Of a stretch of 20,139 bases of DNA, positions 2,243 through 20,139 are shown piece by piece (position 1 is the first letter of the stretch; each line of letters starts with the position of its first letter). The position numbers were made by a program, and so were the translations under genes. The notes under the pieces were generated by a model. The model did no database searches. It had not been told where the DNA came from and saw nothing but the letters and a program-made list of their open reading frames with translations. Source of the stretch: Polyangiales bacterium (lineage in GTDB: Bacteria > Myxococcota_A > Polyangia > Polyangiales > Ga0077539). The stretch covers positions 411,947 through 432,085 of the forward strand of contig JBGARZ010000009.1 in assembly GCA_044229975.1 (NCBI GenBank), read 5' to 3'.

Positions 2243-2315
2243 GCCGCGACGATACCCGTTCTACGAACAGATCGTTTATGTCGGCGCTTCCGCCGTCGGA
2301 GTACAGTCCGCGCGC

Positions 2316-5245: not shown

Positions 5246-6217
5246 TCACCCGCCGCGCAGCAGGCGCAGCACCGTCACCGCCGCCGTCACGCTTCTCACC
5301 GTCGGCGCAAAGGTCCACCGCAGCGACGCCATCCCCTCCGCCACCGTCAGCGTCGGAACGTCCTCCAGGCACACCTCCCGCAACCCCTTCTGCGCCTCCC
5401 TCGCGCGCAGCGCTGCCGTCGCGCCGGGCTCGCCCTCCCACCCGAAGCGCCCGTCGAGCTCCGCGTCTCCCGTCGCCGCGCCGCGCCCGCTGCGTCCCAG
5501 TCCGCCCGACGCGCTCTGCGGCCGCAGCACCAGCCGCGCCGCCGACCGACGCGCCGTCGTCAGCAGCCCCACCTCCACCCGCGGCCCCGACCAGAACCCG
5601 CTCCCCTTCACCGCCCACGCATCGAAGACCATCGGCGCACCGCCCACGCGAAACCGCGCCCGCGCGCCCCGACCGTGCGCTGCGTCCAGCGTCGCCGCCG
5701 CGTCGAAGCGCAGCGCGATGTCCCTCACCCGCGCGCTCAACTTCTCCTGCGCGTCACTGCCTAGCTCCGCCGACGACACCTCGGCGAGCGACGCGTCGAT
5801 CACCCGCATCCACGGGAAGTCCACCCGCGGCCACTCGGCGGCAGGAACGTTCCAGGCGCGGTGCGGGTCGTCCATGTCAGCGAGCGCTTCGTCGATCGCC
5901 GCACGACAGCGCTCCAGCGCATCGATGGCCGCCAGCGCCGTGTGCCACTCGTCCACCCAGCGCCCGCCCTCTCGCAGCAACCCCTCGATGCGCTCGCGAA
6001 CCTCCACTGGCAGGTGACGCCACCCCCGCGCCTCGATGCGCGCGATGCCCTCACGCGCCTCCGCGTCGAGTCGTTGCCAGCGCTGCTGCAAGGTCGGGAG
6101 CGCGTCGCGGTACACGGTCGGCCGTGCTCCCTCGTAGCACGCTGTCCACCCGCGAGGTTTCCCCGACCGCCCGGTCGGGATACGTTCCGTCGCACCCGTC
6201 ATGGCGCTCAACCCCAT
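5246..6217 (-). CDS. Hypothetical protein (about 320 aa) of unknown function.
   Basis: Very strong third-position G bias along the whole ORF and ordinary composition. ATG candidates at 6217 and 6202. Both overlap the start of the divergent gene beginning at 6201. Confidence 0.55.
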   Translation of the reverse strand: MGLSAMTGATERIPTGRSGKPRGWTACYEGARPTVYRDALPTLQQRWQRLDAEAREGIARIEARGWRHLPVEVRERIEGLLREGGRWVDEWHTALAAIDALERCRAAIDEALADMDDPHRAWNVPAAEWPRVDFPWMRVIDASLAEVSSAELGSDAQEKLSARVRDIALRFDAAATLDAAHGRGARARFRVGGAPMVFDAWAVKGSGFWSGPRVEVGLLTTARRSAARLVLRPQSASGGLGRSGRGAATGDAELDGRFGWEGEPGATAALRAREAQKGLREVCLEDVPTLTVAEGMASLRWTFAPTVRSVTAAVTVLRLLRGG

Positions 6218-7406
6218 CGTGCTCGCGGTGCCGTTCTACTTCGTCGGGATGGGCGTCGAGGCGCTCATCAACCACAAGCTCCGCGCGCGGCTCTACGTGC
6301 TCGACGACACGCTCAACAACCTCGCGTGCGGGCTCTTCCAGCAGCTCCTCACGGTGGTCGCCAACGTCGCGCTCATGGCGCCGTACTACTGGCTCTATCG
6401 CCACGCGCGCGTGACCGACTGGTTCATCGCCCACCCCACCGTCGCGTGGATCACCGCGTTCGTGCTGTCGGACTTCTTCTATTACTGGTTCCATCGGTGG
6501 AGCCACGAGAGCGCCATCGGGTGGTTCAGCCACGTCGTCCACCACCAGAGCGAGGAGTACAACCTCTCCGTCGCGCTCCGTCAGGACGGCTGGCAGCCGC
6601 TCTTCTCGATGTGGTTCTTCCTGCCCATCGCGCTGCTGGGCGTTCCGCCCGCCGCGTTTGCCACCGCGTACGGCCTGGTCATCGTGCTCCAGTTCTGGAT
6701 CCACACGCGGCTCATCGGTCGCCTCGGACCGCTGGAGTGGGTGCTCAACACCCCGTCGCACCACCGCGTCCACCACGGCGTCGACCCCAAGTACCTCGAT
6801 AAAAACTACGCCGGCGTCTTCATCATCTGGGACCGGATGTTCGGCACCTTCCAGCGCGAGGAGGAGTCGCCCACCTACGGAACCATCGAGCCCGTCGCGA
6901 GCTTCAACCCCGGCTGGTCGCACCTCGCGTACGGCGCCAAGCTCGCGAAGAAGGTCGCCGCCATGCCCGACCTCTGGAGCGCCGCGCAGGCCATCGTCCG
7001 CTCGCCCGGATGGGTTCCCGCGGGCGTGCCGATGGAGGACCTCAACGCCCTCGCCGCCGAGCGCCTCACGGCCCCGAAGTACCGCGTGACGGTCACGCCT
7101 CCGCGCCGTCGCTACGTGCTCGCGGCCTTCGTGTTCGCGATGGTTCCGGGGCTCGCGCCGCTGGTGATTCCCTTTCCCGCGCTGGTGACGGTGGCCCTCT
7201 CGGCGCTCTCGGTGTGGGGCCTCACCAACGTCGGCGGCGTCACCGAGTCGCGCGCCTGGGCGGCTCCGTCGGAGCTCGCGCGGCTCGCGCTGATGAGCGC
7301 GGCGAGCATCGGGCTCGCGGCGTGGTCGCACCAGCCCGCGTGGTTGATCGCGAGCGTGGTGTCGGTGGTGTTGGCGGGGTGGACCCGTCGCGTCGCGACG
7401 GCCTGA
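6201..7406 (+). CDS. Fatty acid hydroxylase superfamily / sterol desaturase family integral membrane protein.
   Basis: Three histidine boxes, 'HRWSHE', 'HVVHHQS' and 'HHRVHHG', in the characteristic order and spacing for di-iron membrane hydroxylases/desaturases. Multiple transmembrane helices. Extra C-terminal ~110 aa hydrophobic extension. Confidence 0.75.
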   Translation: MALNPIVLAVPFYFVGMGVEALINHKLRARLYVLDDTLNNLACGLFQQLLTVVANVALMAPYYWLYRHARVTDWFIAHPTVAWITAFVLSDFFYYWFHRWSHESAIGWFSHVVHHQSEEYNLSVALRQDGWQPLFSMWFFLPIALLGVPPAAFATAYGLVIVLQFWIHTRLIGRLGPLEWVLNTPSHHRVHHGVDPKYLDKNYAGVFIIWDRMFGTFQREEESPTYGTIEPVASFNPGWSHLAYGAKLAKKVAAMPDLWSAAQAIVRSPGWVPAGVPMEDLNALAAERLTAPKYRVTVTPPRRRYVLAAFVFAMVPGLAPLVIPFPALVTVALSALSVWGLTNVGGVTESRAWAAPSELARLALMSAASIGLAAWSHQPAWLIASVVSVVLAGWTRRVATA

Positions 7407-7424: not shown

Positions 7425-7446
7425 TCACCGCGGCCGGACGCGGTCA
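7425..7446. terminator. GC-rich hairpin (ACCGCG-gccgga-CGCGGT) with no U-tract, lying between the convergent desaturase and dehydrogenase stops. Possible bidirectional terminator.
   Basis: Inverted repeat seen in the sequence. It overlaps the stop codon of the leftward gene ending at 7444. Confidence 0.2.
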
Positions 7447-8682
7447 GCGCGCGAGCAGGCTGCGCGCGATCTGCGACACCTGGATCTCGTCGGTGCCGCC
7501 GTAGATCTGGAGCACCTTGGCGTCGCGGCAGAGCTGCTCGACCTGATACTCGGCCATGTAGCCGTTGCCGCCGAAGAGCTGCACCGCCTCCAGGCAGACG
7601 TCCATGGTGGCCTGCGCCGTGTAGAGCTTGCACGCCGACGCCTCGGCCATGCTCATGGACTTCCCCGCCGCCGCCATCTCGATCTGGCGGAAGACGAGGT
7701 TGGTGATGTTCATGCGCGCGACCTCCATCTTCGCGAGCTTCAACTGGATGAGCTGAAACTCCCCGATGGGCTTGCCGAACTGCACCCGCGTCTTCGCGTA
7801 CTCCGTCGACAGCGCGAGGCACTGCTCGACGATGCCCAATGCCATTGCGGCCACGCCCGTTCGCTCCGACGCGAAGGTCTCCTTGGCCGCCGCGCGCGAC
7901 GGCGTGTCCTCGGTCTCGCCGATGAGGCGATCGACCCCCACGCGAACGTCTTCGAGGAAGAGCTCGCCCGTCGGTGAGCTGTGCATGCCCATCTTGCGAA
8001 GGGGCTTGCTCTGCACGAGGCCGGGCATGCCCTTCTCCAGCACGAAGCTCACGATCTTGCGCCGCTCGGGCGGGGTCTCCCCGTCGTCGAGCTTGCAGAT
8101 GAACACGATGGTGTCGGCGTACGGACCGTTGGTGATGAAGGTCTTGCTGCCGTTGAGGATGTAGCCGCCCTCACCATCGCGGCGCGCCGTGGACTTCATC
8201 CCGCCAAACGCGTCGGAGCCAGAGCCGGGTTCGGTGATGGCCCACGCCCCGATCTTGTCGAGGGTGAGCAGGTCGCGCGCCCAGCGCTCCTTCTGGCGGA
8301 TGGTTCCGCGGGACATGATGGCGGCGGCGGTGAGGCCGAGGCTCACGCCCATCGCGGTGATCATCCCGGGGCTGTACTTCGAGATCTCGATGACGGGGAT
8401 GAGCCGCAGACCGAGGTCCATTCCGCGGGGGGCGCGCTCCCTGGTGTCGTCGTCGGTGGGGGCGGCGCCGCTCTCGGCCTTCGCCTTCTCGCGAGCGATC
8501 TGCGCCTCGAACTGCCCGATGGCCATGTCGCGCACCCCAAACGATTCGAGGAACTTCCTCAGGATGTCGTACGGGAGCATGTCGCCGTGCTCCAGCGCTT
8601 CGAGGTTGGGCTTGATCTCGGCCTCCACGAAGCGACGGACGGCGTCACGGATGGCCTGATGGGTCTCGTTCCATTCGAACAT
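7444..8682 (-). CDS. Acyl-CoA dehydrogenase (412 aa).
   Basis: Start ATG at 8682-8680 (MFEWNETHQAIRDAVRRFVEAEI) with 'GGAGGA' 8 nt upstream. Canonical ACAD blocks 'GAWAITEPGSGSDA', 'YILNGSKTFITNG', 'QLFGGNGY' and 'YGGTDEIQ'. The upstream 390 codons of supplied ORF 7444..9852 are Arg/His-rich junk. Confidence 0.85.
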   Translation of the reverse strand: MFEWNETHQAIRDAVRRFVEAEIKPNLEALEHGDMLPYDILRKFLESFGVRDMAIGQFEAQIAREKAKAESGAAPTDDDTRERAPRGMDLGLRLIPVIEISKYSPGMITAMGVSLGLTAAAIMSRGTIRQKERWARDLLTLDKIGAWAITEPGSGSDAFGGMKSTARRDGEGGYILNGSKTFITNGPYADTIVFICKLDDGETPPERRKIVSFVLEKGMPGLVQSKPLRKMGMHSSPTGELFLEDVRVGVDRLIGETEDTPSRAAAKETFASERTGVAAMALGIVEQCLALSTEYAKTRVQFGKPIGEFQLIQLKLAKMEVARMNITNLVFRQIEMAAAGKSMSMAEASACKLYTAQATMDVCLEAVQLFGGNGYMAEYQVEQLCRDAKVLQIYGGTDEIQVSQIARSLLAR

Positions 8683-8755
8683 GGCGATGGGTCCTCCGCG
8701 ACGAACGATACAGGACTCCGTGAGCCCGCGAGGGCGACGCCCATTGCATCGCCTT

Positions 8756-8784
8756 CGTTGACAATACCGTCCATGACATACCGA
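8756..8784 (+). promoter_or_regulatory. Candidate sigma70-type promoter. A perfect TTGACA -35 hexamer sits at 8756-8761, with a weak -10 (ACCGAT/CCGATT) 16-17 bp downstream.
   Basis: Lies in the 132-bp divergent intergenic region between the dehydrogenase (start 8682, minus) and the lipoprotein gene (start 8815, plus). The -10 is poor. Confidence 0.2.
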
Positions 8785-8814
8785 TTCTGTTGAGCATCGG
8801 GCGGCGGTACAACG

Positions 8815-9741
8815 GTGCTCATGAACACCTCGTCGTCGCGTCGTGGCCTCTCGCTGGTGATGTTCGCGCTGCTCGCGACGGGTTGCGGGGCGTCGGTGTC
8901 GTCGGCGCCGGTGACGGTGGAGAGCGACGCCGGGAGCGTGGTGACGGACGCGCCGACGCCGGTCGCGCCGATGACGTGGCCGAGCTGTGCCGAGGTGCGG
9001 GCGACGTGCGGGGCCGAGCCGCAGCGCCTGGTGCGCGGACACGCCGAGGGGCTGACGGGGCTCGACGGCGCGCGGGTGCGCTTCGCGATGCGGTACATCC
9101 GCGAGGAGGGCAACGGGCTCAACGTTCCGCACGGCGTGGTGGTGGCGGGGGCCGAGGTGCGCGACGGGGCCTTCGAGGCGTGCGTGTGCATGCCGATGGG
9201 CGGCAACAACTACCCGCAGGTGGTGGCGGTGGTGTTTGCGCCGGGGACGACGGGGGAGACGAGCCGCGAGGTGGCGCGGGCGACGTTCAGCCAGCGCTAC
9301 GCGACGCTGGGCAGCGAGAACCTGTCGTACGCATTGAGCGGGGTGGCGTCGGCGCCGGTGGTGGAGGCATCGCTCGCGGGGCTGGTCGAGCGCGCGCACA
9401 CGGTGCGGGTGCGCGGCGTGGAGACGGCGGCGGCGATGGAGGGAAGGGTCTACGCGGGTCTGGTGGCCGACGAGCGGCCCGTGGCGGCGCAGGTGGTGAC
9501 GGGCGGCGCCGTCGAGGGCGGCGCGCTGGGCTTCGAGTGGATCATGCCGGGGCGCGAGTGGCCGAGCGAGCGCGTGGCGATGGTGGTCGACCGCAACGGC
9601 AACCGACGGTGTGACGAAGGGGACGTCGGCGCGACGGTGCGGCTCGATGGGCGGCGCGAGGTGGATGGCGTCGCGTGGGTGCAGGGCGACGCGCTGGCGG
9701 GCGTGTGCGCGGCGCTGCGGATGGAGTCGGAGCGGGAGTAG
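8815..9741 (+). CDS. Hypothetical lipoprotein (about 308 aa).
   Basis: GTG at 8815 or ATG at 8821. Signal peptide 'MNTSSSRRGLSLVMFALLATGC' with lipobox ATGC. No recognisable catalytic motif. Confidence 0.55.
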   Translation: MLMNTSSSRRGLSLVMFALLATGCGASVSSAPVTVESDAGSVVTDAPTPVAPMTWPSCAEVRATCGAEPQRLVRGHAEGLTGLDGARVRFAMRYIREEGNGLNVPHGVVVAGAEVRDGAFEACVCMPMGGNNYPQVVAVVFAPGTTGETSREVARATFSQRYATLGSENLSYALSGVASAPVVEASLAGLVERAHTVRVRGVETAAAMEGRVYAGLVADERPVAAQVVTGGAVEGGALGFEWIMPGREWPSERVAMVVDRNGNRRCDEGDVGATVRLDGRREVDGVAWVQGDALAGVCAALRMESERE

Positions 9742-9764
9742 CGGCGGGGTCGTTGCGCCCGGCT

Positions 9765-9887
9765 GCCGCGCACTGAAGTACGCGGCAACGTTGCGGACAT
9801 CGAGCATGGCACTGCAAGTCCGCTCTGCGGACTTTGCATGGAATTGCGTCATCCCTTCCGGCGTTGCCGCGTACTTCAGTGCGCGGC
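9765..9887. repeat. MITE-like element with perfect 26-bp terminal inverted repeats (gccgcgcactgaagtacgcggcaacg) flanking a 71-bp core that carries its own internal hairpin (gcaagtccgc-tct-gcggacttTgc).
   Basis: Arms at 9765-9790 and 9862-9887 are exact reverse complements. It lies between the convergent lipoprotein and kinase genes. Confidence 0.6.
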
Positions 9888-9931: not shown

Positions 9932-11335
9932 CTACTCGACCGGGACGTGCTCGTGGGCCTGCGGGCGGACGGTGACCGCGGGCCGCGGCAACGGGCGCAA
10001 CACACGCGGCGCAACCCTCACCGGCGGACCTGCATCGACCACGAGCGCCTGCGTCGGGACCGCCACCGGAGGCGGTGACACGACGGGCGGAGGCGGAGGC
10101 GGCGGCGTCACCACCAGCGTCGGTGGCGGCGGCAGTGGCGCGTGGGCGGGCGCAGGCGCGGGGCTCGACGAGCCGACGAGGTACAGCGCCGTGAACGACA
10201 GGCCCGCGGTGGCGAGTGCCGCGGCGACGAGCAGCGGGGCGCGAGAGGGGCGCGGCGCGACGGACTGGGTGATGGGCTTGAGGGTGGTGGTGCGGTCGGG
10301 GGGCGGGCGCGGTCCGAGGACGGGCGCGGTGGTGAGGGCGTCCCAGCTCGCGGTGGCGGGGACGGCGGCGTCGAGGGCGCGGAGGAGGTCGCGCGCGTGC
10401 TGGAAGCGATCGGCCGGGCGCAGCGCGAGGGCGCGGGCGAGGACGGGCTCCCAGGGGCCGACGTCGAGGCCGAACTTCGCCGGGGTGGGGCGCGTGGCGG
10501 AGAGGACGTCGACGGTGAGGGCGGTGTTGTCGTCGCCGCGGAAGGGCGGGCCGTCGGTGAGCACCTCGACGAGGAGGAGCGCGAGGGCGTGGACGTCGGT
10601 CCAGGGGCCGGAGCGGGTCCCGCCGATCTGCTCGGGGGAGGCGTACGCGAGGGTGAAGGCGCGGAGGTCGGTGCGGGTGGCGGTCTCGCCGGAGGCGACG
10701 GTCTCGTCGAGGTCCATGGCCTTGGCGATGCCGAAGTCGAGGAGCTTCGGGGTGACGCCGTCGCGGGAGCGGGCGAGCATGACGTTGGCGGGCTTGAGGT
10801 CGCGGTGGGCGACGCCCTCGTCGTGCGCGATGGCGAGCGCCTCGAAGACCGGGCGCAGGAGCGCGAGGGCCTCAGCGGGAGGGCGGCCGGTGCGGTCGCG
10901 GCGGGCGTCGAGGATGGATTCGAGGGAGTCACCGTCGATCCATTCGAGGACGATCCAGGGGGCGGCGCCGCCTGATGGGAGGAGGCCGCCGCCGAAGTCG
11001 AGGACGCGGACGATGCCGGGGTGTTCGAGGCGGGCGATGGTGCGCGCCTCGAAGACGAACTTGTCGATGAACGACCGGCGGTGCGACTCCGGGATGGTCG
11101 ACGGGGTCTTGAGCACCTTGATGGCGACAGGCTTCTGGAGGGAGCGGTGGGTGGCCCGGTAGACGACGCCGAAGCCGCCCTCGGCGATGAGGGAGTGGAC
11201 GTCGTATTTGCCGTCGAGGCGGGTTCCCAGGAGGGAGAAGGGGTCGGTGGGGGCGGCGGGGGGCACGGCGGGGGTTAGTTGAATTGTTCGATGACGAAAG
11301 GGTTTGATACCGTTCCTGTGATCGGCCCAACACAA
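9932..11335 (-). CDS. Serine/threonine protein kinase (Hanks type). It has a C-terminal transmembrane segment and a proline-rich periplasmic tail.
   Basis: Motifs 'GGFGVVY', 'AIKVL', 'HRDLKPANVM', 'DFGIAK' and 'ASPEQ'. Transmembrane segment 'LLVAAALATAGLSFTALYLVG'. Poly-Pro tail. The supplied start is a TTG at 11335 that overlaps the upstream gene. A GTG at 11266-11264 (MPPAAPTDPFSLLG...) lies 9 nt after the upstream stop and is the more likely start. Confidence 0.85.
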   Translation of the reverse strand: MCWADHRNGIKPFRHRTIQLTPAVPPAAPTDPFSLLGTRLDGKYDVHSLIAEGGFGVVYRATHRSLQKPVAIKVLKTPSTIPESHRRSFIDKFVFEARTIARLEHPGIVRVLDFGGGLLPSGGAAPWIVLEWIDGDSLESILDARRDRTGRPPAEALALLRPVFEALAIAHDEGVAHRDLKPANVMLARSRDGVTPKLLDFGIAKAMDLDETVASGETATRTDLRAFTLAYASPEQIGGTRSGPWTDVHALALLLVEVLTDGPPFRGDDNTALTVDVLSATRPTPAKFGLDVGPWEPVLARALALRPADRFQHARDLLRALDAAVPATASWDALTTAPVLGPRPPPDRTTTLKPITQSVAPRPSRAPLLVAAALATAGLSFTALYLVGSSSPAPAPAHAPLPPPPTLVVTPPPPPPPVVSPPPVAVPTQALVVDAGPPVRVAPRVLRPLPRPAVTVRPQAHEHVPVE

Positions 11336-12138
11336 GGCGGATAGCGCGCGTCGGGAGCAACGATTTCCAATCTCAGCGAGTAACTACGTCCCGCGTCGAG
11401 TCGGTATAGTTCGTGACCGGTGATGTTTAGTGGTGTCCCCATAGGCGGCTCCGATACGAGGCGGACCGTGTAAGAGTTTCCATGGGTGTCGTTCGCGGCT
11501 ACGCTACTAAGGGGTACCGATGTAACCTCATAGTAGGCTGAGGCCGATGCCGTAAAGGCGATGCTGAACTGCGGCCCCATCAGCGGAATCGCCAAAACGG
11601 AAGGAGATGAGGGACATGGAACACTGATGCTATCTACTGTGGGACTCGTCGGCCTCCAACTCCCAATCACCACCTGCCTTCCCGCTGGTCGCGCTTCTAC
11701 CGCCGCAATCCTCGCCTCCAGCGCACCCGCGGCGGCCGTCGCCCGCCCGGCCTCCAACGCATACGGCACGGCGCCCAGCTTCGACCGCGGGAACGTCGTC
11801 CCCTCCACCTGCACCTCGGCCCACAGCTCCGGGTTCGCCCGCACCGCGCCGACACACGCCGCATCCAGCGCCACCCGGAATCGCCCGCCCGTGAACGTCG
11901 TCCCCACCGCGGTCGTCGAGCACACCGTCGCGCCCGCCGTGGCAGCGTCCCACAGCCGCACCGTGACGTTGCGCGCGCCTTCCACCGGGCGCCCGCCGTC
12001 ATTGAGCACACCGCCGTAGTACAGCGGGTTCACCGCCGGGACGCCGTCCGCTCGCGCTCGCCCGACGCGATAGGCGACAACGCCCACGACGAGACAAGCG
12101 CCAACGCTCCACACCAGGAGGGAGGAGGGTCTCTTCAT
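11275..12138 (-). CDS. Signal-anchored (N-terminal transmembrane) protein, paralogue A. It has a conserved N-terminal beta-rich domain ('VRLWDAATAG...GRFRVALD...ELWAEVQVEGTTFPRSKLGAVPYALEA') and a variable C-terminal domain.
   Basis: ATG at 12138-12136 with GGAG 9 nt upstream. The remainder of supplied ORF 11275..12423 lies inside the palindromic repeat and is not coding. Transmembrane helix 'LLVWSVGACLVVGVVAY'. About 90% identical over residues 20-150 to the gene at 12809..13675. Confidence 0.7.
   Translation of the reverse strand: MKRPSSLLVWSVGACLVVGVVAYRVGRARADGVPAVNPLYYGGVLNDGGRPVEGARNVTVRLWDAATAGATVCSTTAVGTTFTGGRFRVALDAACVGAVRANPELWAEVQVEGTTFPRSKLGAVPYALEAGRATAAAGALEARIAAVEARPAGRQVVIGSWRPTSPTVDSISVPCPSSPSVLAIPLMGPQFSIAFTASASAYYEVTSVPLSSVAANDTHGNSYTVRLVSEPPMGTPLNITGHELYRLDAGRSYSLRLEIVAPDARYPPCVGPITGTVSNPFVIEQFN
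11651..12050. repeat. Copy 1 of a ~400-bp direct nucleotide repeat (about 90% identity with 13179-13580). It covers the 5' coding part of paralogue A.
   Basis: Aligned by eye. Identity begins exactly at 'ggcctccaactcccaatcac', which encodes VIGSWRP, and runs toward the gene start. Confidence 0.7.
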
Positions 12139-12171
12139 ACGATAGGACTCCAGGTGGGCCTGACTTGAGGC

Positions 12172-12440
12172 GATGGGGAGTGGTTCAGGCCAGTGTGCGT
12201 CGCTGGGGTTCGGGCGCTGGCCCTCACCCCAGGCAATAACAAGCAGGCGCCCCGGACAGGGTCCGGGGCTTTCGACCAGGAACTCGTTGAAGCCAATGAC
12301 ACCATGCGAGATCCGCGTCGTAAGACCCATCGAGTGTCGGTTCGAAAGCCCCGGACCAGTCCGGGGCGCCCGCTTGTTATTGCCTGGGGTGAGGGCCAAC
12401 GCCCGAACCCCAGCGACGCACACTGGCCTGAACCACCATC
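12172..12440. repeat. Large composite palindrome. Arms of ~100 bp (about 96% identity) flank a ~65-bp centre. Each arm ends in an 8-bp GC hairpin (ccccggac-agg-gtccgggg) followed by CTTTCGA.
   Basis: Left arm 12172-12275 and right arm 12341-12440 are reverse complements with 3-4 mismatches. The palindrome also appears as mirrored 'proteins' in supplied ORFs 12173..12709(+), 12193..12666(+) and 12135..12875(-). Confidence 0.6.
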
Positions 12441-12491
12441 AAGCGACGTCCCGACCTCGCGCATCCCGTCGACGAGCATCCACTCACGCTC

Positions 12492-12718
12492 GCCCAATGC
12501 GTCCTTACCCGAGGGGGCGCTCCCGCCCAGGCCCTCCCAGCGCGTCCTTACCCGAAGGGACGCGACCGCCCACGTCAGCGGTATCCGGTCTCCGTCGGGA
12601 AGCTCGACGCGCGCCGGATCGGACCTCCGCGAACGCGAACGTAGGTGGTCGCGTCCCTTCGGGTAAGGACGCGTTGGGAGGGCCTGAGTGCGAGCACCCC
12701 TTCGGGTGAGGGCGCATT
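12492..12718. repeat. Second nested palindrome, a REP/BIME-like cluster. Four copies of a ~24-nt hairpin unit (cgcgtccttacccgaagggacgcg and variants) are arranged as two inverted pairs.
   Basis: 12539-12572 is the reverse complement of 12643-12678 (2 mismatches). 12492-12522 is roughly the reverse complement of 12688-12718. Each unit contains a cUUCGg or GAA-loop hairpin. Confidence 0.5.
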
Positions 12719-12808
12719 GGGACAGCCCGGGTGAATGGGCTGTTGAACGGAGACGCGGAGCCGATGCGCTCAAATGGTCAACCCGCAAGAGGCAGTCGTG
12801 AGCATCCA

Positions 12809-13675
12809 TCACTCCAACTGCTCCGCCATCATGGGCCTTCGCGCGAAGAACTCCGTAGCCGGACTCGTTCGACATGCCACGTCCGCACGCATCTCTACGA
12901 AGAACGAGTATTCTCTTCCAGTTTCAAGACGAAAGACGGCTTCAAGTCGATCTCCGATCTCACTCCTATCAAACACCAAAGCAGCAGGAACACTCGAAGC
13001 CAGCCGCGTAAACCCAAGCGCAACCGTATTTTCTGCCGGTGCCGATACCCGATACAATCCGGCCGATGATGCAGTGAAGGTCAACGAGAACGGTTCACCC
13101 CCGATCCTCACATACGAGGTCGCGGGAGGCGGCGTCGTTGGACAGATAACGGGGAAGGTAACTGCTGTCGGCGTAGCCGGCCTCCAACTCCCAATCACGA
13201 CTTGTCTCGTCGCAGTTCTCCCCTCCACCGCCGCAATCCTCGCCTCCAGCGCCCCAGTCGCACCCGCCGCGCTCACCGCCCTCCCGGCCTCCAACGCATA
13301 CGGCACCGCGCCCAGCTTCGACCGCGGGAACGTCGTCCCCTCCACCTGCACCTCGGCCCACAGCTCCGGGTTCGCCCGCACCGCACCGACGCACGCCGCG
13401 TCCAGCGCCACCCGGAAGCGCCCGCCCGTGAACGCCGTCCCCGCCGCGCTCGTCGTGCACACCGCCGCGCCCGCCGTCGCCGCATCCCACAGCCGCACCG
13501 TCACGGCCCGCACGCCCTCCACCGGGCGCCCGCCGTCACTCAACACACCGCCGTAGTACAGCGGGTTCATCGCCGGAACACCGTCCGCCCGCGCCTTCCC
13601 CAGCCGATACGCCGCGACCATGCCCACAACGGACAACGCCGCGGCGCCCAGCACCACGCCCCGCCGCGCCTTCAC
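12809..13675 (-). CDS. Signal-anchored protein, paralogue B. It has the same conserved N-terminal domain as 11275..12138 and a diverged but homologous C-terminal domain.
   Basis: GTG start at 13675-13673 (MKARRGVVLGAAALSVVGMVAAY...) overlaps the TGA of the upstream gene as GTGA. An ATG at 13714 is an alternative. Transmembrane helix present. 'AVPYALEA' block. Confidence 0.7.
   Translation of the reverse strand: MKARRGVVLGAAALSVVGMVAAYRLGKARADGVPAMNPLYYGGVLSDGGRPVEGVRAVTVRLWDAATAGAAVCTTSAAGTAFTGGRFRVALDAACVGAVRANPELWAEVQVEGTTFPRSKLGAVPYALEAGRAVSAAGATGALEARIAAVEGRTATRQVVIGSWRPATPTAVTFPVICPTTPPPATSYVRIGGEPFSLTFTASSAGLYRVSAPAENTVALGFTRLASSVPAALVFDRSEIGDRLEAVFRLETGREYSFFVEMRADVACRTSPATEFFARRPMMAEQLE
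13179..13580. repeat. Copy 2 of the ~400-bp direct repeat, covering the 5' coding part of paralogue B.
   Basis: See copy 1. It is also the source of the mirrored antisense ORFs 11561..12019(+) and 12774..13556(+). Confidence 0.7.
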
Positions 13676-14028
13676 GGCAACAACCCTCCCGTCAAACACA
13701 GCGTCCCCACGCATCCCGGTGCGCCCACCTCGAAGCCCGTCTCGCTCAGCTCCAGCGTCCCCATCGTGACGCTCCCGCCGCTCGTCGTCGCGATCCCCTG
13801 CGCCTGCATCACCAGCCCCGTCGCGCCTCCACCGTCGTCCGGCGTCCCCGCGTCACCCGTCACGTCACCCGTCGCATCCCCCATCACCCCGCGATCGCCC
13901 AACGCGCCATCAACCATCGCCGCCCCGACGTCCATCACCGCCGCGTCGCGCCTCGGTCGGTACACCCACTCCTCATCGGAGCACCCCGCCACCAGCACCG
14001 CGGCCACCGCCCACCGCGCCGCCTTCAC
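13672..14028 (-). CDS. Small Gly/Asp-rich lipoprotein (about 118 aa).
   Basis: GTG at 14028-14026 overlaps the upstream TGA as GTGA. Signal peptide 'KAARWAVAAVLVAGC' with lipobox LVAGC. Its stop overlaps the next start as GTGA again. Confidence 0.5.
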   Translation of the reverse strand: MKAARWAVAAVLVAGCSDEEWVYRPRRDAAVMDVGAAMVDGALGDRGVMGDATGDVTGDAGTPDDGGGATGLVMQAQGIATTSGGSVTMGTLELSETGFEVGAPGCVGTLCLTGGLLP

Positions 14029-15038
14029 AGCACGCCACCCACCGCGAGCCCGTTGCCCGTCGGAACCACCCACGTCGTCGGTCGCCCCTCCGCCGCGCTC
14101 CCCCCGCTCGCCCGCGCCACCAGAAACCACACCACCCCGCCCGCCACCATCGCGCTGCCGACCCCGATGGCCACGTTGGTCCCCGTCGTGAACCCGCGCA
14201 TCCGCTCGTCCGCGTCGATGGACGACGCGTCACACCCACCCGCGTCGCACGCCCCGTCGCGCTCGCTCATCGCGCCGCCGTGCATCCCCCACAGCACGCC
14301 CGCACCCACGAAGGCCGCCGCCCCGACGCCCGCCAACACCCACGGCCCGGCGCCCACCCCGCGACGCACCGGCCCCTCCGCCGGCGCCACCGCCCTCGGC
14401 GCTTCCACCACGGTCCGCGGCGCCGGTCGCACCACCGCATCCGCGGCTCTCGGCGCGTCAAGCGCGACCTCGGCGCTCGCTCCCGCGGTCACCGTCACCG
14501 TCACCGTCTGCGCGTGATGGAGCGCCTCGTCGCTCACGCGCACCGTCACCTCGCCCGGATCAACCGGCACCGCCACGCCCCACGCCGCCGCGGGCAGCTC
14601 GCGACCGCCGACGGTTACCGCCGCGTTCGTGAGCCCGGCCGGAACGCGCACCGTCAGCCGCCCGACCCGCCCCGAGAGAGCCCCCGTGAGCTCGCGACAG
14701 ATGCCGAGGATGCGATCGCGGTTGCGCAGGGCCGCGTCGGCGGTGGCGTCGGCGGTGCAGCGTCGCGCGTGATCGAGCGCCGTGACGAAGTGCCCGAGCT
14801 GCTCATGTTCCTGCGCGAGCAGGAGCGCCAGCGACGGCGTCATCCGCAGGGCCGCCGCGCGACCGGCGAGCTCCGCGGCCTGCGCGTGGTCGCCCGCCTC
14901 ACGGGCGCGCTCGGCCTGCGCGACGAGGTCACGCCGTAGCGCGTCGGTGTCGGTCTGCGCGAGCGCCGTCGAGGTGGTCGTGAGCAGCGCGACCGCACAC
15001 ATGACCGAGCGCGCCCACCGTCCGATCGTCCCGCTCAT
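14025..15038 (-). CDS. Secreted, membrane-anchored hypothetical protein. It has a signal peptide, a helical (TPR-like) N-terminal region, a beta-rich PEGA-like middle, and two C-terminal transmembrane helices.
   Basis: ATG at 15038. Signal peptide 'MSGTIGRWARSVMCAVALLTTTSTALAQ'. Segment 'LTVRVPAGLTNAAVTVGGRELP...GEVTVRV' resembles a PEGA-type beta-sandwich. Hydrophobic segments 'GPWVLAGVGAAAFVGAGVLWGM' and 'VAIGVGSAMVAGGVVWFLVA'. Confidence 0.55.
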   Translation of the reverse strand: MSGTIGRWARSVMCAVALLTTTSTALAQTDTDALRRDLVAQAERAREAGDHAQAAELAGRAAALRMTPSLALLLAQEHEQLGHFVTALDHARRCTADATADAALRNRDRILGICRELTGALSGRVGRLTVRVPAGLTNAAVTVGGRELPAAAWGVAVPVDPGEVTVRVSDEALHHAQTVTVTVTAGASAEVALDAPRAADAVVRPAPRTVVEAPRAVAPAEGPVRRGVGAGPWVLAGVGAAAFVGAGVLWGMHGGAMSERDGACDAGGCDASSIDADERMRGFTTGTNVAIGVGSAMVAGGVVWFLVARASGGSAAEGRPTTWVVPTGNGLAVGGVL

Positions 15039-15127: not shown

Positions 15128-15325
15128 TCACTTCCGACCGCGCTTCTCGTACGCCCCGATCATCGCTTTCAGCTTCACCGCCCGCGCCTCGCTCGCGCCC
15201 CGCGTGTGCCGCGTCGAGACGATCGCCAGCGCGATCTCGTACGCGGCCAGCACCGCGGCGAGGCCCGCAGCGATGGTGGCAGCGATCGGAGCGGTCGGAG
15301 CAGCGGTAGTGGTTCGCTTCATCAT
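15128..15325 (-). CDS. Possible small membrane protein (65 aa, MMKRTTTAAPTAPIAATIAAGLAAVLAAYEIALAIVST...EKRGRK). A plus-strand ORF 15096..15398 is a competing reading of the same positions.
   Basis: High third-position GC, but the third positions coincide with the plus frame. The plus ORF's TGA overlaps the fic ATG as ATGA. Neither has a good Shine-Dalgarno sequence. Confidence 0.2.
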   Translation of the reverse strand: MMKRTTTAAPTAPIAATIAAGLAAVLAAYEIALAIVSTRHTRGASEARAVKLKAMIGAYEKRGRK

Positions 15326-15346
15326 CAATGTGCTCAAGGTCCGCTG

Positions 15347-15370
15347 GGCGACGCTACCCGACGCGTCGCC
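15347..15370. promoter_or_regulatory. 8-bp inverted repeat GGCGACGC-n8-GCGTCGCC 25 bp upstream of the fic ATG. An adjacent GCGATacgATCGC repeat follows. Candidate operator.
   Basis: Seen in the sequence, in the 5' region of the Fic gene. Confidence 0.2.
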
Positions 15371-15394
15371 GTGTCGCGATACGATCGCCGCTCG

Positions 15395-16636
15395 ATGATC
15401 TTCGCGGCGCGACAGCTCCCATGGTCCGTGGTCGACCCGGCGGGCATCCCCTTCGACCCGGCGCCCGCGTACGCCATCGCCCGCAAGCACTTCGCGGCGT
15501 TGTCTTCCACCGACCGCGTCCACGCCGCCCACGGTCACTACCACCTCGACCTCGACCTCATCACCCACTACGGCGCCTGGGCCTCCGGCTGGGACTGGAC
15601 CTCCTCCTACGGCGGCCCCCTCTCCCCTCCCGACGCCACCGACCACGCCGACGCCTGGGTCCAGCGCACCGTCACCTCGCTCGTGCGCTGGCGAGAGTTT
15701 CTCGAAGAGCTCGCCCTGCTCCAGATGTCCCTTCGCGAAGAGACCGACGGCCTCCCGCTCGCAGACCGCATCGAGCACGCCGCCGCCCGCTACCTCCCGC
15801 TCGTGCTCGACCTCACCGGCGCCACCGCCGAATGGTATGTGACCTTCAAGGTCGCCTTGCGATGGCACGTCGAGTCGCTCGGCGTCGTCGACCCGCGCGT
15901 CGCACGCGTCATCGGTGACGTCGTCTCGGGTGTGTTCGAGAGCTGGTGCGCTCCGTCGAGCGCCACCGCCGCGTCGACGTGCGCCGAGCTCGGACTCCGC
16001 GTCGGCGAACTGAACGCGAGCCCCGTCAAACTCGGCGACGCCCTCGCCCGCTGGTGGACGCGACGCGCCGAGACCACCTGGCACAAGCCCCGCTCACGAC
16101 AACCTGGTCCCGTCACCACCGACGGACACCGCGCCTTCATCGAGCGACGCGACGCCGCCCGCTCGGCCGATCGCGCCCGCCACATGAACGACGCGCTCAC
16201 GTTCATCCGGGCGGAGGCCAACGCGCAGCGACCGCTCTCGTGGACGATGCTCCGCGAGGCGCAGCGACACGTGCTCGGCGTTGCGTCGGTGGACTTTCGC
16301 GACGGCGACGCCTTCGCCCACCACGGGCGCGAGCGCTACGCCCTCGGCGCCGACACCTTCGAACGCTTCGAGAACTGCCTCGCCAACGCAGCCCGCCCGT
16401 CGCTCCCGCCGCTCGCGAGGGCAGCGCGCGTGTACCTCGACGTCTGCTTCGTGCACCCCTTCGCCGACGGCAACGCCCGCGCCGCGCGCCTCGCGCTCGA
16501 CCACGTGCTCACCACCGCCGGGCTCGCGCTGCACACCGCGGAGCCGGTGTTTCTCCTACCGCGCCGCGCCGACGACCCGATGAACGGCGCCAACCTGATG
16601 TACCTGCTCGATCAGCTCTCGAGTCCGACCCGCTGA
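15395..16636 (+). CDS. Fic/Doc family protein, a putative AMPylase/adenylyltransferase. It carries a variant active-site motif, HPFADGNARAAR.
   Basis: C-terminal 'DVCFVHPFADGNARAARLALDHVL' matches the Fic signature HPFx[DE]GNGRxxR with the second Gly replaced by Ala. ATG at 15395. The upstream part of supplied ORF 15206..16636 is Arg/Gly junk. The ~300 aa N-terminal region is unrecognised. Confidence 0.7.
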   Translation: MIFAARQLPWSVVDPAGIPFDPAPAYAIARKHFAALSSTDRVHAAHGHYHLDLDLITHYGAWASGWDWTSSYGGPLSPPDATDHADAWVQRTVTSLVRWREFLEELALLQMSLREETDGLPLADRIEHAAARYLPLVLDLTGATAEWYVTFKVALRWHVESLGVVDPRVARVIGDVVSGVFESWCAPSSATAASTCAELGLRVGELNASPVKLGDALARWWTRRAETTWHKPRSRQPGPVTTDGHRAFIERRDAARSADRARHMNDALTFIRAEANAQRPLSWTMLREAQRHVLGVASVDFRDGDAFAHHGRERYALGADTFERFENCLANAARPSLPPLARAARVYLDVCFVHPFADGNARAARLALDHVLTTAGLALHTAEPVFLLPRRADDPMNGANLMYLLDQLSSPTR

Positions 16637-16814: not shown

Positions 16815-17357
16815 CTACGGATCCGGCGGGCGCAGCACCGGGCTCAGCACGCCGTCGTAGACCCGCGCGTCGACGCTCCCGTGGCAGGTGTTGCACCCGA
16901 TGCCGTCGGCCGCCCCGTACGGGTCGTCGAGACCCGTCCGCGGATTGAGCCCGCGCGCCACGATCACCACCCGCCCCCGCGCATCGATCCGCAGCCGGAA
17001 GAACTCCCACCCCACGTTGCCGCGCGCGTTGTAGCCGCCCGACCGCTTCACCGACGCGAACACCTGCCACGTCGTCGGGTCACCGCGCTCCAGCGTTCGC
17101 ACGATGATCGTCCCCGTCTCGAAGGTCCGCGACTCGGGGCGGCGCGGGATGTTCACGTACGCGTACTGCTCCGGGCCCTCCAGGTGGCCGCCCGCCGAGA
17201 AGCGCCCGAGGGAGGTGCGGCGCCACCGGCGGAAGCCCTCGAAGTCCTGCGTGAAGGCCACGAAGCTCGTGCGCGGCCGACCCGCGTCGGCCCTGGTCGA
17301 TCGCGGCGATCGGCACGCCACCGCGAGCAGCGCCAGCAGCAGCGCCGCGCGCCTCAC
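16815..17357 (-). CDS. Periplasmic c-type haem protein, cytochrome P460 / cytochrome c'-beta-like (about 180 aa).
   Basis: Signal peptide 'RRAALLLALLAVAC'. 'VGWEFF' block and a single CxxCH ('GIGCNTCHG') near the C-terminus, as in the P460 family. GTG start at 17357 lies 1 nt after the upstream TGA. The supplied TTG start at 17417 would overlap the upstream gene by 59 nt. Confidence 0.45.
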   Translation of the reverse strand: MRRAALLLALLAVACRSPRSTRADAGRPRTSFVAFTQDFEGFRRWRRTSLGRFSAGGHLEGPEQYAYVNIPRRPESRTFETGTIIVRTLERGDPTTWQVFASVKRSGGYNARGNVGWEFFRLRIDARGRVVIVARGLNPRTGLDDPYGAADGIGCNTCHGSVDARVYDGVLSPVLRPPDP

Positions 17358-17358
17358 C

Positions 17359-18852
17359 TCAGAACGCGCCCGACGTGGGGAACTCCCGCGCACACCGCTC
17401 GCGCACGTCTTGAGCAACCGTGCCCGCGGCCGGCAGCGTCGGCGGGGTCATGAAGGGCGGGTTCTCGAAGTCGAACATGTCCGTCGGGACGTTGGCGTTG
17501 GCGTCGCGGCGGGTGAGCGCCGGCAACCCGAAGCGCGCCTCGATGAAGCGCAGGATGGACCCGTGGTCGAAGGTGCGGTGCGACACGAAATGCCGCCGCG
17601 CGTACGGAGACACCACCATGAACGGGACCCGCACCCCGTAGCGGTCGAAGCGCCCGTCGGCGGGCATGCCGTTGATGCGCGGCGTGAGGTCGTCGGGCTC
17701 GCACGCGGCGGGAGGCGCCACGTGGTCGGCGAAGCCGCCGTGCTCGTCGTACACGAGGAAGAGCGCGCTGCGACGCCAGAGGGGAGAGCCCATGAGCGAG
17801 CGGACGATGCGCTCGACGAAGCGCTCGCCGTTCATCGGGATGCCCGGCGGGTGCTCGTCGACGCGCTCACCGCCGTCGCCCTGGTAGTTGGGCTCGACGA
17901 TGGTGACGGGGGGGAGCGTTCCGGCCGCGAGGTCGCGGTGCAGGTCTTCGATGGTGCCGTAGTTGTTGCGCGTCGCCCCGCGCACGATGCCGTAGTACGG
18001 GAAGAACCCGAGCATCCGGGCGCCGCCCGCGTAGTCCTTCCAGGCGATGCCCGCCGCGTCGAGCGAGCCGAAGAGGTGGCCCACCGGGGTGTTGCGCGTG
18101 TCCTGCGAGATGAGCGTGTTATGCGCGAGCCCGAAGGACGTCCCCGCCATCAGGTACATGCGGTTGGGCCCGGTGGGACCGAGCAGCGAGCAGAAGTACC
18201 GGTCGCCGATCGCGAAGGTCGTCGCGAGCGAATAGTAGAAGGGGATGTCGCTCTGATCGAAGTAGGTCAGACCGCGCTCACCGTCGGGGTCGTTGGTGGT
18301 GACGAAGCCGTCCATGCGGCCGTTGTTGTACTGGCGATGAACGGAGTTCCACCCGTGGGCGACGTCCTCGATGCACCGCTGGGTGTCGTGGTGGAAGAGC
18401 ACCGGCGCGCCCGCCGCCGTGGGGTTGGACCAGTCCGCCGCCGCCACGTCGACGTCGGTCTGACCGGCCGCCGGCAACCGGCTGAAGTAGTGATCGAAGG
18501 AGCGGTTCTCCTGCATCACCACGATGATGTGGTCGATGGGCATCTGGTCGCCGATGGGAACCTCACGCCCCACCGTCTCCGCCGCCCACGCGCCGCGCCC
18601 GAAGGTGCACGCCTGCCGCTGCGTCGCCCGCGCTTCGTCCGTCTCGGTGCGCGTGATGGGCGGCGGCCGAACGTAGTCCGGCGGCGGCGCGTCGACGGGC
18701 TCCTTGCCGATGTCCTCGGACACATCGAGGGCGGCGGACACATCCGCCACCGCCGCATCCGCGGGAGGCGTCGCCGCGTCCTCGGTACAGCCGGCCAGGA
18801 GCGCAGGGATCACCAATGCGAGACAGCGCGCGCGCGACATGGTCGGGACCAT
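17359..18852 (-). CDS. Phosphoesterase of the phospholipase C / acid phosphatase AcpA family. Lipoprotein.
   Basis: 'VVMQENRSFDHYFS' signature of the PLC/AcpA phosphoesterase family. Size of about 500 aa is closer to AcpA than to PlcH. Signal peptide 'MSRARCLALVIPALLAGC' with lipobox LLAGC. An ATG at 18852 (MVPTMSRAR...) has GAGGG 10 nt upstream. An alternative ATG is at 18840. Confidence 0.8.
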   Translation of the reverse strand: MVPTMSRARCLALVIPALLAGCTEDAATPPADAAVADVSAALDVSEDIGKEPVDAPPPDYVRPPPITRTETDEARATQRQACTFGRGAWAAETVGREVPIGDQMPIDHIIVVMQENRSFDHYFSRLPAAGQTDVDVAAADWSNPTAAGAPVLFHHDTQRCIEDVAHGWNSVHRQYNNGRMDGFVTTNDPDGERGLTYFDQSDIPFYYSLATTFAIGDRYFCSLLGPTGPNRMYLMAGTSFGLAHNTLISQDTRNTPVGHLFGSLDAAGIAWKDYAGGARMLGFFPYYGIVRGATRNNYGTIEDLHRDLAAGTLPPVTIVEPNYQGDGGERVDEHPPGIPMNGERFVERIVRSLMGSPLWRRSALFLVYDEHGGFADHVAPPAACEPDDLTPRINGMPADGRFDRYGVRVPFMVVSPYARRHFVSHRTFDHGSILRFIEARFGLPALTRRDANANVPTDMFDFENPPFMTPPTLPAAGTVAQDVRERCAREFPTSGAF

Positions 18853-18898
18853 ACCAGAGACCCTCGTGACGGAGTCGTGACGACGCGCCGTCGTTGCG

Positions 18899-20086
18899 TC
18901 AGCGCACCTCGACCCCAAGGGCCTGCCCCGCGCGCACCATCCGCTCGGCCAACGAACCCGCGCGGTCGGGGTCGGACTCCTCACCCAGAAACCCGTGCAA
19001 CGCACCGTAGGCCGTGGCGCGCTGCGCGGCGGTGGGGGCATCGGGGTTCCAGCCCGGCGGTACGGGCGGGAGCGCGTCGCCGGGCAGCGCGTCGTACCGC
19101 GCCTCGATGGCCGCGAGCCGCGCGTCGATGGTCGTTGCCATCGCCTCGTGACCGGCGTCGCGGAGCCACGGTCGGAAGCACGCGAAGAGCGCCCGTCCCC
19201 CGTGGAGGTTGGCGCGCATGTCCGCGAGCGTGCGACGCGCGTACCGCGACTCCTCCTCGGCCGTGGCCGCGAGGTCGATCTTCTCGTGCTGCTCGCGCAT
19301 CGACGACACCACGCCGCGGTACGCCGCCGCCGGGTCGAGCGCGAGCGGGCCGAACGCCCTCCGCATCGCGGCGATGTCGTCGATGACCCGTCGCACGAGG
19401 CCGTCGCGAAAACCCGCCGCCTCGCGCGCGTCGCCCGGATACGACGGCGCCACGTACACGCTGCCCTCTCGCAGCGATCGCTCGAAGGCGAGCACCTCGG
19501 GCGCCACCTCGTCGGCCCACAGGATGCGCTCGATGGCGTGCATCCCGGTGACGCCGACGCCGTCGAAGGGGTCGGGGTCGAGGCCGCCTTCCGCGAAGCC
19601 CTCGTAGCGCGCGTCGATGACCACGTCGGTCTCCGGGAAGAGCACCACCACGCCGGCCTCGATGTGCTCGTAGGCGTCGCGCATGCGCCCCCACGCCGCG
19701 CGCATCCGACGGACGGAGGCGGCGTCGGCGCGGGCGTTCCAGCCGTCGGCGTCGGGGGCGGGCGCGGCAGCGTGGAGGTCGCGCGCGGCGGTCTCCAGCG
19801 CGGCCATCTCGGTCGCGAGGTACGCCTTCACCTCCAGCGTCACGCGCTCGGCGGGAGAGAGCCGCGCGGCCTCGCCGCCGAGGGTCGCGACGAGCCACAG
19901 CGCGAGCCACGCCACCGCCGCGAGGCGCAGCCATTTGCGGGGAGCCTTCACAGTCGCGGCGACCGCTTCCGGACCGGGGTTGGTCGCGTCCCGCGCCTGC
20001 ACCCCGGGCAAGCGATCGGCATAGGGGCGGCCCCTCCGTGAGGAGGAGCCGACCCCTGCCACACCACCGGACAAGCGGGTCCGCAT
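18899..20086 (-). CDS. Imelysin-like (peptidase M75 / IrpA-EfeO-type) periplasmic protein.
   Basis: 'GVTGMHAIERILW' matches the imelysin GxHxxE signature. N-terminal signal/anchor 'WLRLAAVAWLALWLVATLGG'. The start is uncertain: ATG at 20086 or an in-frame GTG near 19950. Stop TGA at 18899-18901. It lies 46 nt upstream of the phosphoesterase gene. Confidence 0.45.
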   Translation of the reverse strand: MRTRLSGGVAGVGSSSRRGRPYADRLPGVQARDATNPGPEAVAATVKAPRKWLRLAAVAWLALWLVATLGGEAARLSPAERVTLEVKAYLATEMAALETAARDLHAAAPAPDADGWNARADAASVRRMRAAWGRMRDAYEHIEAGVVVLFPETDVVIDARYEGFAEGGLDPDPFDGVGVTGMHAIERILWADEVAPEVLAFERSLREGSVYVAPSYPGDAREAAGFRDGLVRRVIDDIAAMRRAFGPLALDPAAAYRGVVSSMREQHEKIDLAATAEEESRYARRTLADMRANLHGGRALFACFRPWLRDAGHEAMATTIDARLAAIEARYDALPGDALPPVPPGWNPDAPTAAQRATAYGALHGFLGEESDPDRAGSLAERMVRAGQALGVEVR

Positions 20087-20139
20087 CCGGCGGTTCGGAC
20101 GGTTGAGGTCACCTCCGTAGCCTCCACAACCCGAGGCTG

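Follow-up and report, generated by a model that had tools for sequence, protein, structure and literature searches.

The window considered here is a stretch of 20,139 nucleotides (nt) from a Polyangiales bacterium (contig JBGARZ010000009.1, positions 411,947 to 432,085) with a G+C content of ~71%. Near its right end three minus-strand open reading frames (ORFs) lie head to tail and code, in the order of reading, for an imelysin-like protein, a phosphoesterase and a small mono-haem protein (Table 1). The initial annotation had placed here three exported proteins whose genes are spaced by gaps of 46 nt (18853–18898) and 1 nt (17358). These coordinates were reproduced exactly, and the three family identities that it proposed are correct (PF09375, PF04185 and the P460/c'-beta fold, the last through family profiles). 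The identities of the genes are established, and the three genes are taken, with moderate confidence, to form a single operon for envelope proteins.

Table 1. Features of the locus, with positions numbered from the first nucleotide of the window.
Feature	Position	Strand	Evidence
Imelysin-like (EfeO M75-type) exported protein	18899..20086, probable start GTG 19951	-	PF09375
PF04185 phosphoesterase, predicted lipoprotein	17359..18852	-	PF04185, E 4.2e-77
Mono-haem c lipoprotein, P460/c'-beta fold, 180 aa	16815..17357	-	family profile and hhalign
Non-coding leader 5' of the imelysin gene	19952..20139	-	three-frame translation; blastn versus L106
Fic/DOC-domain gene	15206-16636	+	PF02661, E 1e-7; HPFADGNARAARL motif

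The interval given for the imelysin gene is that of its longest ATG-initiated ORF. Translation likely starts downstream of this ATG, at the GTG codon of Table 1, yielding a protein of 350 residues that begins MKAPRKWLRLAAVAWLALWLVATLGG, because a 350-residue gene is called in L106, the locus closest to that of the window (95.7% identical over the three genes) and nucleotide homology between the two loci begins at that codon. Read from this GTG, the protein has a Sec signal peptide without a lipobox Cys. Residues 90–342 match Peptidase_M75 (PF09375; E 2.7e-20, 73.5 bits against a gathering threshold of 23.5), and both the HxxE motif (GMHAIE) and an EfeO-like EEESRY motif are present, in agreement with its earlier description as an imelysin/EfeO-type HxxE protein. 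In the alignment to the EfeO structure 7wgu (E 3.7e-8) TGMHAIE and EEESRYA pair with TGFHRLE and EEDRYS. The protein falls outside the EfeO equivalog family: NF041757 scores 56.8 bits against a cutoff of 270, and its M75 part alone is matched.

The phosphoesterase has 497 residues and an amino terminus, MVPTMSRARCLALVIPALLAGC, with the lipobox LLAGC. PF04185 is matched over its entire length (260 bits, profile positions 1–356 of 356), and the motifs ENRSFDHYF, DEHGGFADH and FDHGS as well as the Thr of PTGPNR are conserved in the alignment to the phospholipase C (PLC) 9gy2, which bears out the reading of this protein as a lipoprotein phosphoesterase with the ENRSFDHYF signature. Its nearest relatives in the PDB are the phospholipases C 9gy2 (4e-44) and 8hav (NPC4), together with AcpA (2d1g). 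The scores obtained with the more specific models TIGR03396 (phosphocholine-specific PLC; 217 bits versus 580) and TIGR03397 (Burkholderia-type AcpA; 104 bits versus 363) stay below both cutoffs. The protein consists of the catalytic domain only.

The small protein is initiated at a GTG codon and features a lipobox (LLAVAC) and a single CNTCH motif at residues 155–159. Its proposed likeness to P460/c'-beta proteins held for the fold and failed in the direct search: PF16694 is not matched by the window protein at E≤1, whereas it is matched by 87 of 115 members of the wider family (E≤0.1; best 1e-9), some of which bear the NCBI name "cytochrome P460 family protein". The family profile retrieves the P460 of Methylococcus capsulatus from the PDB at 2e-5, and hhalign aligns it to McP460, TtCP-beta and McCP-beta with 98% probability (E 2e-13). 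The P460/c'-beta beta-sheet fold followed by a carboxyl-terminal CxxCH is established in this way, and the assignment of the small protein as a divergent cytochrome of this fold appears sound on profile evidence despite the failed direct search. A word-based homology search returned only 15 relatives; the exhaustive profile search yielded 598 cluster representatives (50% identity) at E≤1e-3, of which 390 pass E≤1e-10. CxxCH, K104, R105, W117 and E118 vary little or not at all across the family. A phmmer comparison of the small protein with PDB sequences gave only noise local to CxxCH, and a 14-sequence profile was set aside after its PDB matches were found to be dominated by spurious designed TIM barrels, with c'-beta proteins marginal (E 0.3–0.8).

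Some members of the family are composite. P0031, P0040, P0119, P0123 and P0162 have two to four tandem P460-like domains, and P0040 has in addition an amino-terminal class I cytochrome c domain. Such proteins hint at multi-haem chains assembled from P460-fold units, and the combination of tandem repeats with a class I cytochrome c domain (P0031, P0040) would fit a use of the fold in electron transfer. Two further candidates, an apparent fusion of phosphoesterase and P460-like protein (P0016) and one of di-haem and P460-like protein (P0151), were rejected as read-through gene calls with an internal lipobox.

The residues that line the haem pocket were compared with those of characterized proteins. 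In P460 cytochromes the haem is cross-linked to a Lys (K70 in NeP460, K78 in McP460, K106 in NsP460), where c'-beta proteins have Phe or Met. Oxidation of hydroxylamine (NH2OH) requires a carboxylate on the distal side (NeP460 E96, McP460 D102), NeP460 needs Arg44 to form its cross-link, and in McP460 the distal cap is Arg50 (PMC11928373). The c'-beta proteins bind nitric oxide (NO) and carbon monoxide (CO); NeCP-beta, with its distal Arg, is peroxidase-like in activity (PMC11928373). The initial annotation had asked which of Lys or Phe the protein carries. Neither is found: Arg87 occupies the cross-link position in the HMMER and hhalign alignments (TIIV-R87 versus AILV-K78, TVTV-K70 and TVIV-F61), and the other two determinants are missing as well, Phe100 aligning to McP460 D102 in hhalign and Gln64 to McP460 R50, that is, to the Arg44/Arg50 position. 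These pocket residues are established as aligned; since the structural model discussed below is weak around the haem, the assignments rest on sequence and profile alignments. Of the 115 proteins of the wider family, 106 have Lys at position 87 and 81 have Arg at position 64; Phe or His occupies position 100, and His58, which lies in a distal-loop insertion, is conserved in 98.

According to the definition of c'-beta proteins by the lack of a cross-link (PMC11928373), the window protein would fall on the c'-beta side, as it has no Lys at position 87. It has neither the Phe61 nor the Met79 of that group at this position, and comparison with the non-polar c'-beta cap leaves the cap position uncertain, with Gln64 and His58 both in the distal loop. 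By its predicted pocket the protein belongs neither to the P460 cytochromes in the strict sense nor to the c'-beta proteins of the Phe/Met type, and it resembles in sequence the "halfway-house" proteins of PMC11928373. Since the equivalents of the cross-link Lys, the distal carboxylate and Arg44/Arg50 are all missing, oxidation of hydroxylamine by the small protein appears unlikely. R87 and Q64 characterize the clade of the window protein. A strict tie between Arg87 and an upstream phosphoesterase was considered and dropped: L103 and L104, two loci in which the cytochrome is paired with a phosphoesterase, have Lys87 and Arg64, and the substitution consequently arose inside the paired clade. 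Note that K87R and R64Q co-occur in every member of the window clade, which resembles a coupled swap of positive charges in the haem pocket.

It could be argued from the P460/c'-beta fold and homology that the small protein acts in nitrogen-oxide chemistry, either in detoxification of hydroxylamine or in NO binding, and that its neighbors are functionally unrelated to it. The Lys at the cross-link position of 106 of the 115 family members agrees with this, as do NO and CO binding by c'-beta proteins and the peroxidase-like behavior of NeCP-beta (PMC11928373). The Arg87, Phe100 and Gln64 of the window protein disagree, and so does the genomic setting of the family, nearly always beside genes for a di-haem oxidoreductase (DHOR) or imelysin, or beside PF04185 genes. 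This explanation is judged quite improbable.

The genomic setting was defined from 106 loci. The window and L001–L102 form the mapped set of 103 loci, drawn from contigs with exact homologs, eight Myxococcales/Polyangia loci from metagenome-assembled genomes and 80 metagenome loci (mostly soil and peat); L103–L106 were added later. For the mapping of neighbors, representatives of conserved ORF clusters were compared with Pfam and the clusters were turned into hidden Markov models (HMMs). These family HMMs replaced a single-linkage grouping of six-frame ORFs, in which long spurious ORFs of high G+C content had merged families. The conserved clusters are DHOR (PF06537), imelysin, an outer-membrane-protein-like (OMP-like) protein of ~280 residues and phosphoesterases; no nitrogen-cycle family is found among those of the mapped loci, another point against nitrogen-oxide chemistry.

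The usual gene order, on one strand and found in dozens of the 103 loci, is DHOR, imelysin, P460-like, OMP-like. A DHOR and/or imelysin gene lies within 4.5 kb in 28 of the 33 non-redundant loci that have at least 3 kb of upstream sequence; three of the other five are phosphoesterase-paired, a fourth (L020) has a PF04185 gene at a distance of ~900 nt and the fifth lacks both. The P460-like gene directly follows DHOR and imelysin in L016, L017, L021/22 and many metagenome loci. Of 52 non-redundant loci whose downstream sequence is long enough, 26 have the OMP-like gene immediately 3' of the P460-like gene; the window and all phosphoesterase-paired loci lack it. The OMP-like product (e.g., L037:5591-6400, L041:4043-4864, L076:901-1743 and in ~25 other loci) has a signal peptide and no Pfam match, and looks like a small outer-membrane beta-barrel. 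In L060 two P460-like genes (380-949 and 1920-2483) flank an OMP-like gene.

The order DHOR-imelysin-phosphoesterase-P460-like is found in L011–L015 and L106, DHOR being positioned 241 nt upstream of imelysin in the latter. In the window the phosphoesterase gene is likewise interposed between the imelysin and P460-like genes, and the position corresponding to DHOR is off-window. These conserved gene orders are established. The earlier suggestion that the neighborhood departs from the usual association of imelysins with di-haem peroxidases needs revision: DHOR lies directly 5' of imelysin in relatives, and in this lineage the P460-like gene regularly belongs to the cassette. By its gene content the window neighborhood would be a version of that usual setting, not an alternative to it.

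DHOR and the OMP-like gene were sought across the 20-kb window and neither is there; the three-frame translation of its last 200 nt does not show the DHOR carboxyl terminus (...ALVDFVRRL*) either. DHOR may lie just beyond the window edge. The blastn homology between the window and L106 extends to the imelysin start codon and no further; the leader of the window, presumably the promoter region, is unrelated to the L106 sequence. A promoter/terminator scan was uninformative and showed no sigma-70-like site in the leader, and no inverted repeat was found in it. The 241-nt DHOR-imelysin spacer of L106 is itself an inverted repeat (L106:5672-5906; 86-nt arms that are 90% complementary, 63-nt loop) and resembles a miniature inverted-repeat transposable element (MITE) or a repetitive extragenic palindromic (REP) element.

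The triad of imelysin, phosphoesterase and P460-like genes recurs in L008, L011–L015 and L106, and the phosphoesterase/P460-like pair is found by itself within unrelated flanks in L001, L002/3, L007, L103 and L104. The gene order of the triad is therefore not due to chance. Co-conservation of the three genes, one of the checks proposed initially, holds among close relatives (identity of the P460-like protein 52% in L015 and at least 71% in the others) and not beyond them, where the conserved units are DHOR-imelysin-P460-like and phosphoesterase-P460-like, each separately. The pair is kept in at least six genomic contexts in Myxococcota, with a gap of 1 nt in several of them. In a neighbor-joining tree the phosphoesterase-paired cytochromes form one clade that is nested among the DHOR/imelysin-associated ones and is sister to L016/L017, in which DHOR, imelysin and the P460-like gene occur without phosphoesterase.

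The persistence of the pair invites the explanation that the small protein assists the phosphoesterase, as an accessory subunit or as a chaperone, its link to imelysin being secondary. PlcR, which is encoded just downstream of plcH and complexes with PlcH, provides a precedent. The pair is the most stable unit of the neighborhood: its genes are 1 nt apart or overlap slightly, and it is retained in at least six flanking contexts, across which the identity of the phosphoesterase falls to as little as 57%. However, CxxCH, K104, R105, W117 and E118 are conserved also where there is no phosphoesterase nearby, which argues for a haem function that is ancestral and maintained. Both proteins have their own lipoprotein signal, so that an export chaperone is not needed, and the fold search points to similarity with P460/c'-beta proteins only. 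An accessory role of this kind is considered unlikely.

The opposite explanation, a neutral landing of the phosphoesterase gene in the imelysin cassette with no functional coupling, would account for the many family cassettes, the majority, that lack a phosphoesterase, and for Minicystis rosea, where a ~50%-identical phosphoesterase is found without a P460-like neighbor. It does not account for a pair that persists outside the cassette in several unrelated flanks and keeps its tight spacing. A protein of 885 residues is encoded convergent to the P460-like gene in L029 (3185-5842, minus strand) and also in L026–L028, L030 and L033, all from peat metagenomes; it combines a beta-propeller (YNCE/NHL/lactonase-like) with a carboxyl-terminal PF04185-like region (ERENKTFD). 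This second association of the cytochrome with the PF04185 family belongs to a separate clade and is probably independent. Together with the PF04185 gene ~900 nt away in L020 it implies that the PF04185 association arose more than once, which speaks against a neutral event. Absence of coupling is accordingly rated very improbable, and all three explanations, nitrogen-oxide chemistry, accessory subunit and neutral insertion, rank lower than the one developed below.

On balance, the operon is somewhat probably a lineage-specific derivative of a DHOR-imelysin-P460-fold-OMP-like cassette, previously undescribed and widespread among soil bacteria including Myxococcota, to which a phosphoesterase was added. 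A gene for a PLC/AcpA-type phosphoesterase would have been inserted directly 5' of the cytochrome gene, resulting in translational coupling, the OMP-like gene being absent. Later, inside the paired clade, the cytochrome, which would never have had the catalytic carboxylate, would have lost the cross-link Lys (K87R) and the Arg that supports the cross-link (R64Q). The HxxE/EExRY site of the Sec-exported imelysin is proposed to bind a metal in the manner of EfeO/EfeM, with iron the most likely candidate. The haem lipoprotein would carry an ordinary, non-cross-linked c-haem and serve as a redox, peroxide-reactive or gas-reactive partner and not as a hydroxylamine oxidase. Its partner may be the DHOR whose gene precedes that of the imelysin in relatives, as Fe(II) oxidation by EfeB/EfeO suggests by analogy. 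The phosphoesterase lipoprotein would hydrolyze phosphoesters at the same envelope site, probably bound to the cytochrome in a 1:1 complex. We thus propose that the imelysin and the haem protein act in metal/peroxide redox chemistry of the envelope and that the phosphoesterase is physically associated with them, and "periplasmic redox and phosphoester-processing module", the label of the initial annotation, appears reasonable by analogy. We infer the localization of the products, their complex formation, the iron or peroxide role and the substrate from gene context and from related systems.

Several observations weigh against this derivation. The Pfam and NCBIfam scans of the window small protein gave no match at E≤1, and Foldseek found nothing for it in the PDB. 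Its AF2 model is of moderate confidence (pLDDT 72.8) and poor around the haem site. The neighbor-joining tree is rough and has no support values. DHOR, if present in this genome, would lie off-window, and the 189 nt upstream of the imelysin gene are unrelated to the L106 spacer. The pair occurs without imelysin or DHOR in several lineages and may act independently of the iron-like cassette. The low potentials and open distal sites of the P460-fold haems characterized to date are ill-suited to a simple electron carrier. Finally, no experiments on this P460 branch were found in the literature, so that every functional step rests on context and analogy.

A bolder proposal is that the PF04185 enzyme has the P460-fold lipoprotein as its obligate partner, which could be a redox or gas-sensing regulatory subunit or a peroxide-dependent maturase, and that the large P460 branch operates in imelysin/di-haem-peroxidase metal-redox systems and not in nitrogen-oxide chemistry. 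MauG and MbnH, which modify partner proteins, are a model for the maturase idea. The proposal is doubtful as it stands; if true, the window phosphoesterase would be the first haem-coupled member of the PLC/AcpA family.

Downstream of the three genes the Fic/DOC-domain gene is convergent to them, and the transcription unit therefore ends with the gene of the small protein. L106 has a Fic gene at the equivalent position. Further into the window, the region 11275-15038 has several long ORFs on both strands without Pfam match, a strongly negative GC skew (to -0.37) and a G+C content of 0.75–0.77, the maximum of the window. An acyl-CoA dehydrogenase of 802 residues with an amino-terminal extension of ~390 residues that has no Pfam match is encoded at 7444-9852 (minus strand). 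Its gene adjoins one of the fatty-acid hydroxylase family (6201-7406), and genes for a CpXC protein (3909-4574) and a secretory-lipase-like hydrolase (2145-3899) are found nearby.

The component families and the theme of imelysins associated with haem peroxidases are known. What is new is that the cassette includes a P460-fold protein, that phosphoesterase and cytochrome form a conserved pair and that the haem pocket has Arg87 and Gln64. A search of the available literature library found no paper with both "imelysin" and "P460" and nothing relevant that links P460 to phospholipase C. The P460/c'-beta superfamily is described as proteobacterial and nitrogen-cycle-related (PMC11928373), and its members have been studied almost wholly as nitrogen-cycle or gas-binding proteins of these bacteria. 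The 390 clusters retrieved at E≤1e-10 point to a large uncharacterized branch of lipoproteins from Myxococcota and other soil bacteria. Their genes adjoin either imelysin and DHOR genes, the setting of the imelysin operons under Fur and peroxide control, which are poorly understood, or genes for PLC/AcpA-type phosphoesterases. If context reflects function, the range of uses of the P460 fold would be wider, a missing haem partner of imelysin systems would be supplied, and the window clade would offer a natural Lys-to-Arg and Arg-to-Gln variant for probing the haem-Lys cross-link. The coupling to a phosphoesterase is an unexpected pairing of an enzyme with a haem protein that is concrete and testable.

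The cassette, as found in relatives with DHOR directly upstream of the imelysin, shares with P. aeruginosa PA4370-PA4373, V. cholerae VC1264-1267, Leptospira LruB and EfeUOB an exported cluster in which an HxxE imelysin is associated with a haem peroxidase-like protein. The known imelysin/DUF1111 operons are regulated by iron or peroxide and show cofitness, pointing to iron uptake: they were linked to it in PMC3143127, imelysin-DUF1111 cofitness was reported in 10.1101/072470, and in Leptospira induction by H2O2 and by iron limitation was found (PMC7567364). Unlike them, the window-type cassette has no second imelysin-like gene, DUF1513 or EfeU permease, and it carries a P460-fold mono-haem protein together with the OMP-like protein in the canonical form or with the PF04185 phosphoesterase in the window form. 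Its imelysin lacks the cupredoxin domain of EfeO. The phosphoesterase has in common with PlcH/PlcN, plant NPC4 and Francisella AcpA the full catalytic domain with the ENRSFDHYF, TxPNR, DExGGFxDH and FDHxS motifs. It differs in having no carboxyl-terminal DUF756-type domains, in being a Sec lipoprotein and not a substrate of twin-arginine translocation, and in the coupling of its gene to that of a haem protein. Compared with NeP460 (2je3), McP460 (6hiu), NsP460 (6amg), McCP-beta (6hih), TtCP-beta (7ead/8brk) and NeCP-beta (7s5o), the small protein has Arg in place of Lys or Phe/Met, no distal carboxylate, Gln in place of Arg44/Arg50 and the family-specific His58 of the distal loop. It is a lipoprotein from Myxococcota and not a protein of proteobacterial nitrifiers or methanotrophs, and its gene is found in an imelysin/DHOR/phosphoesterase setting instead of a nitrogen-cycle one.

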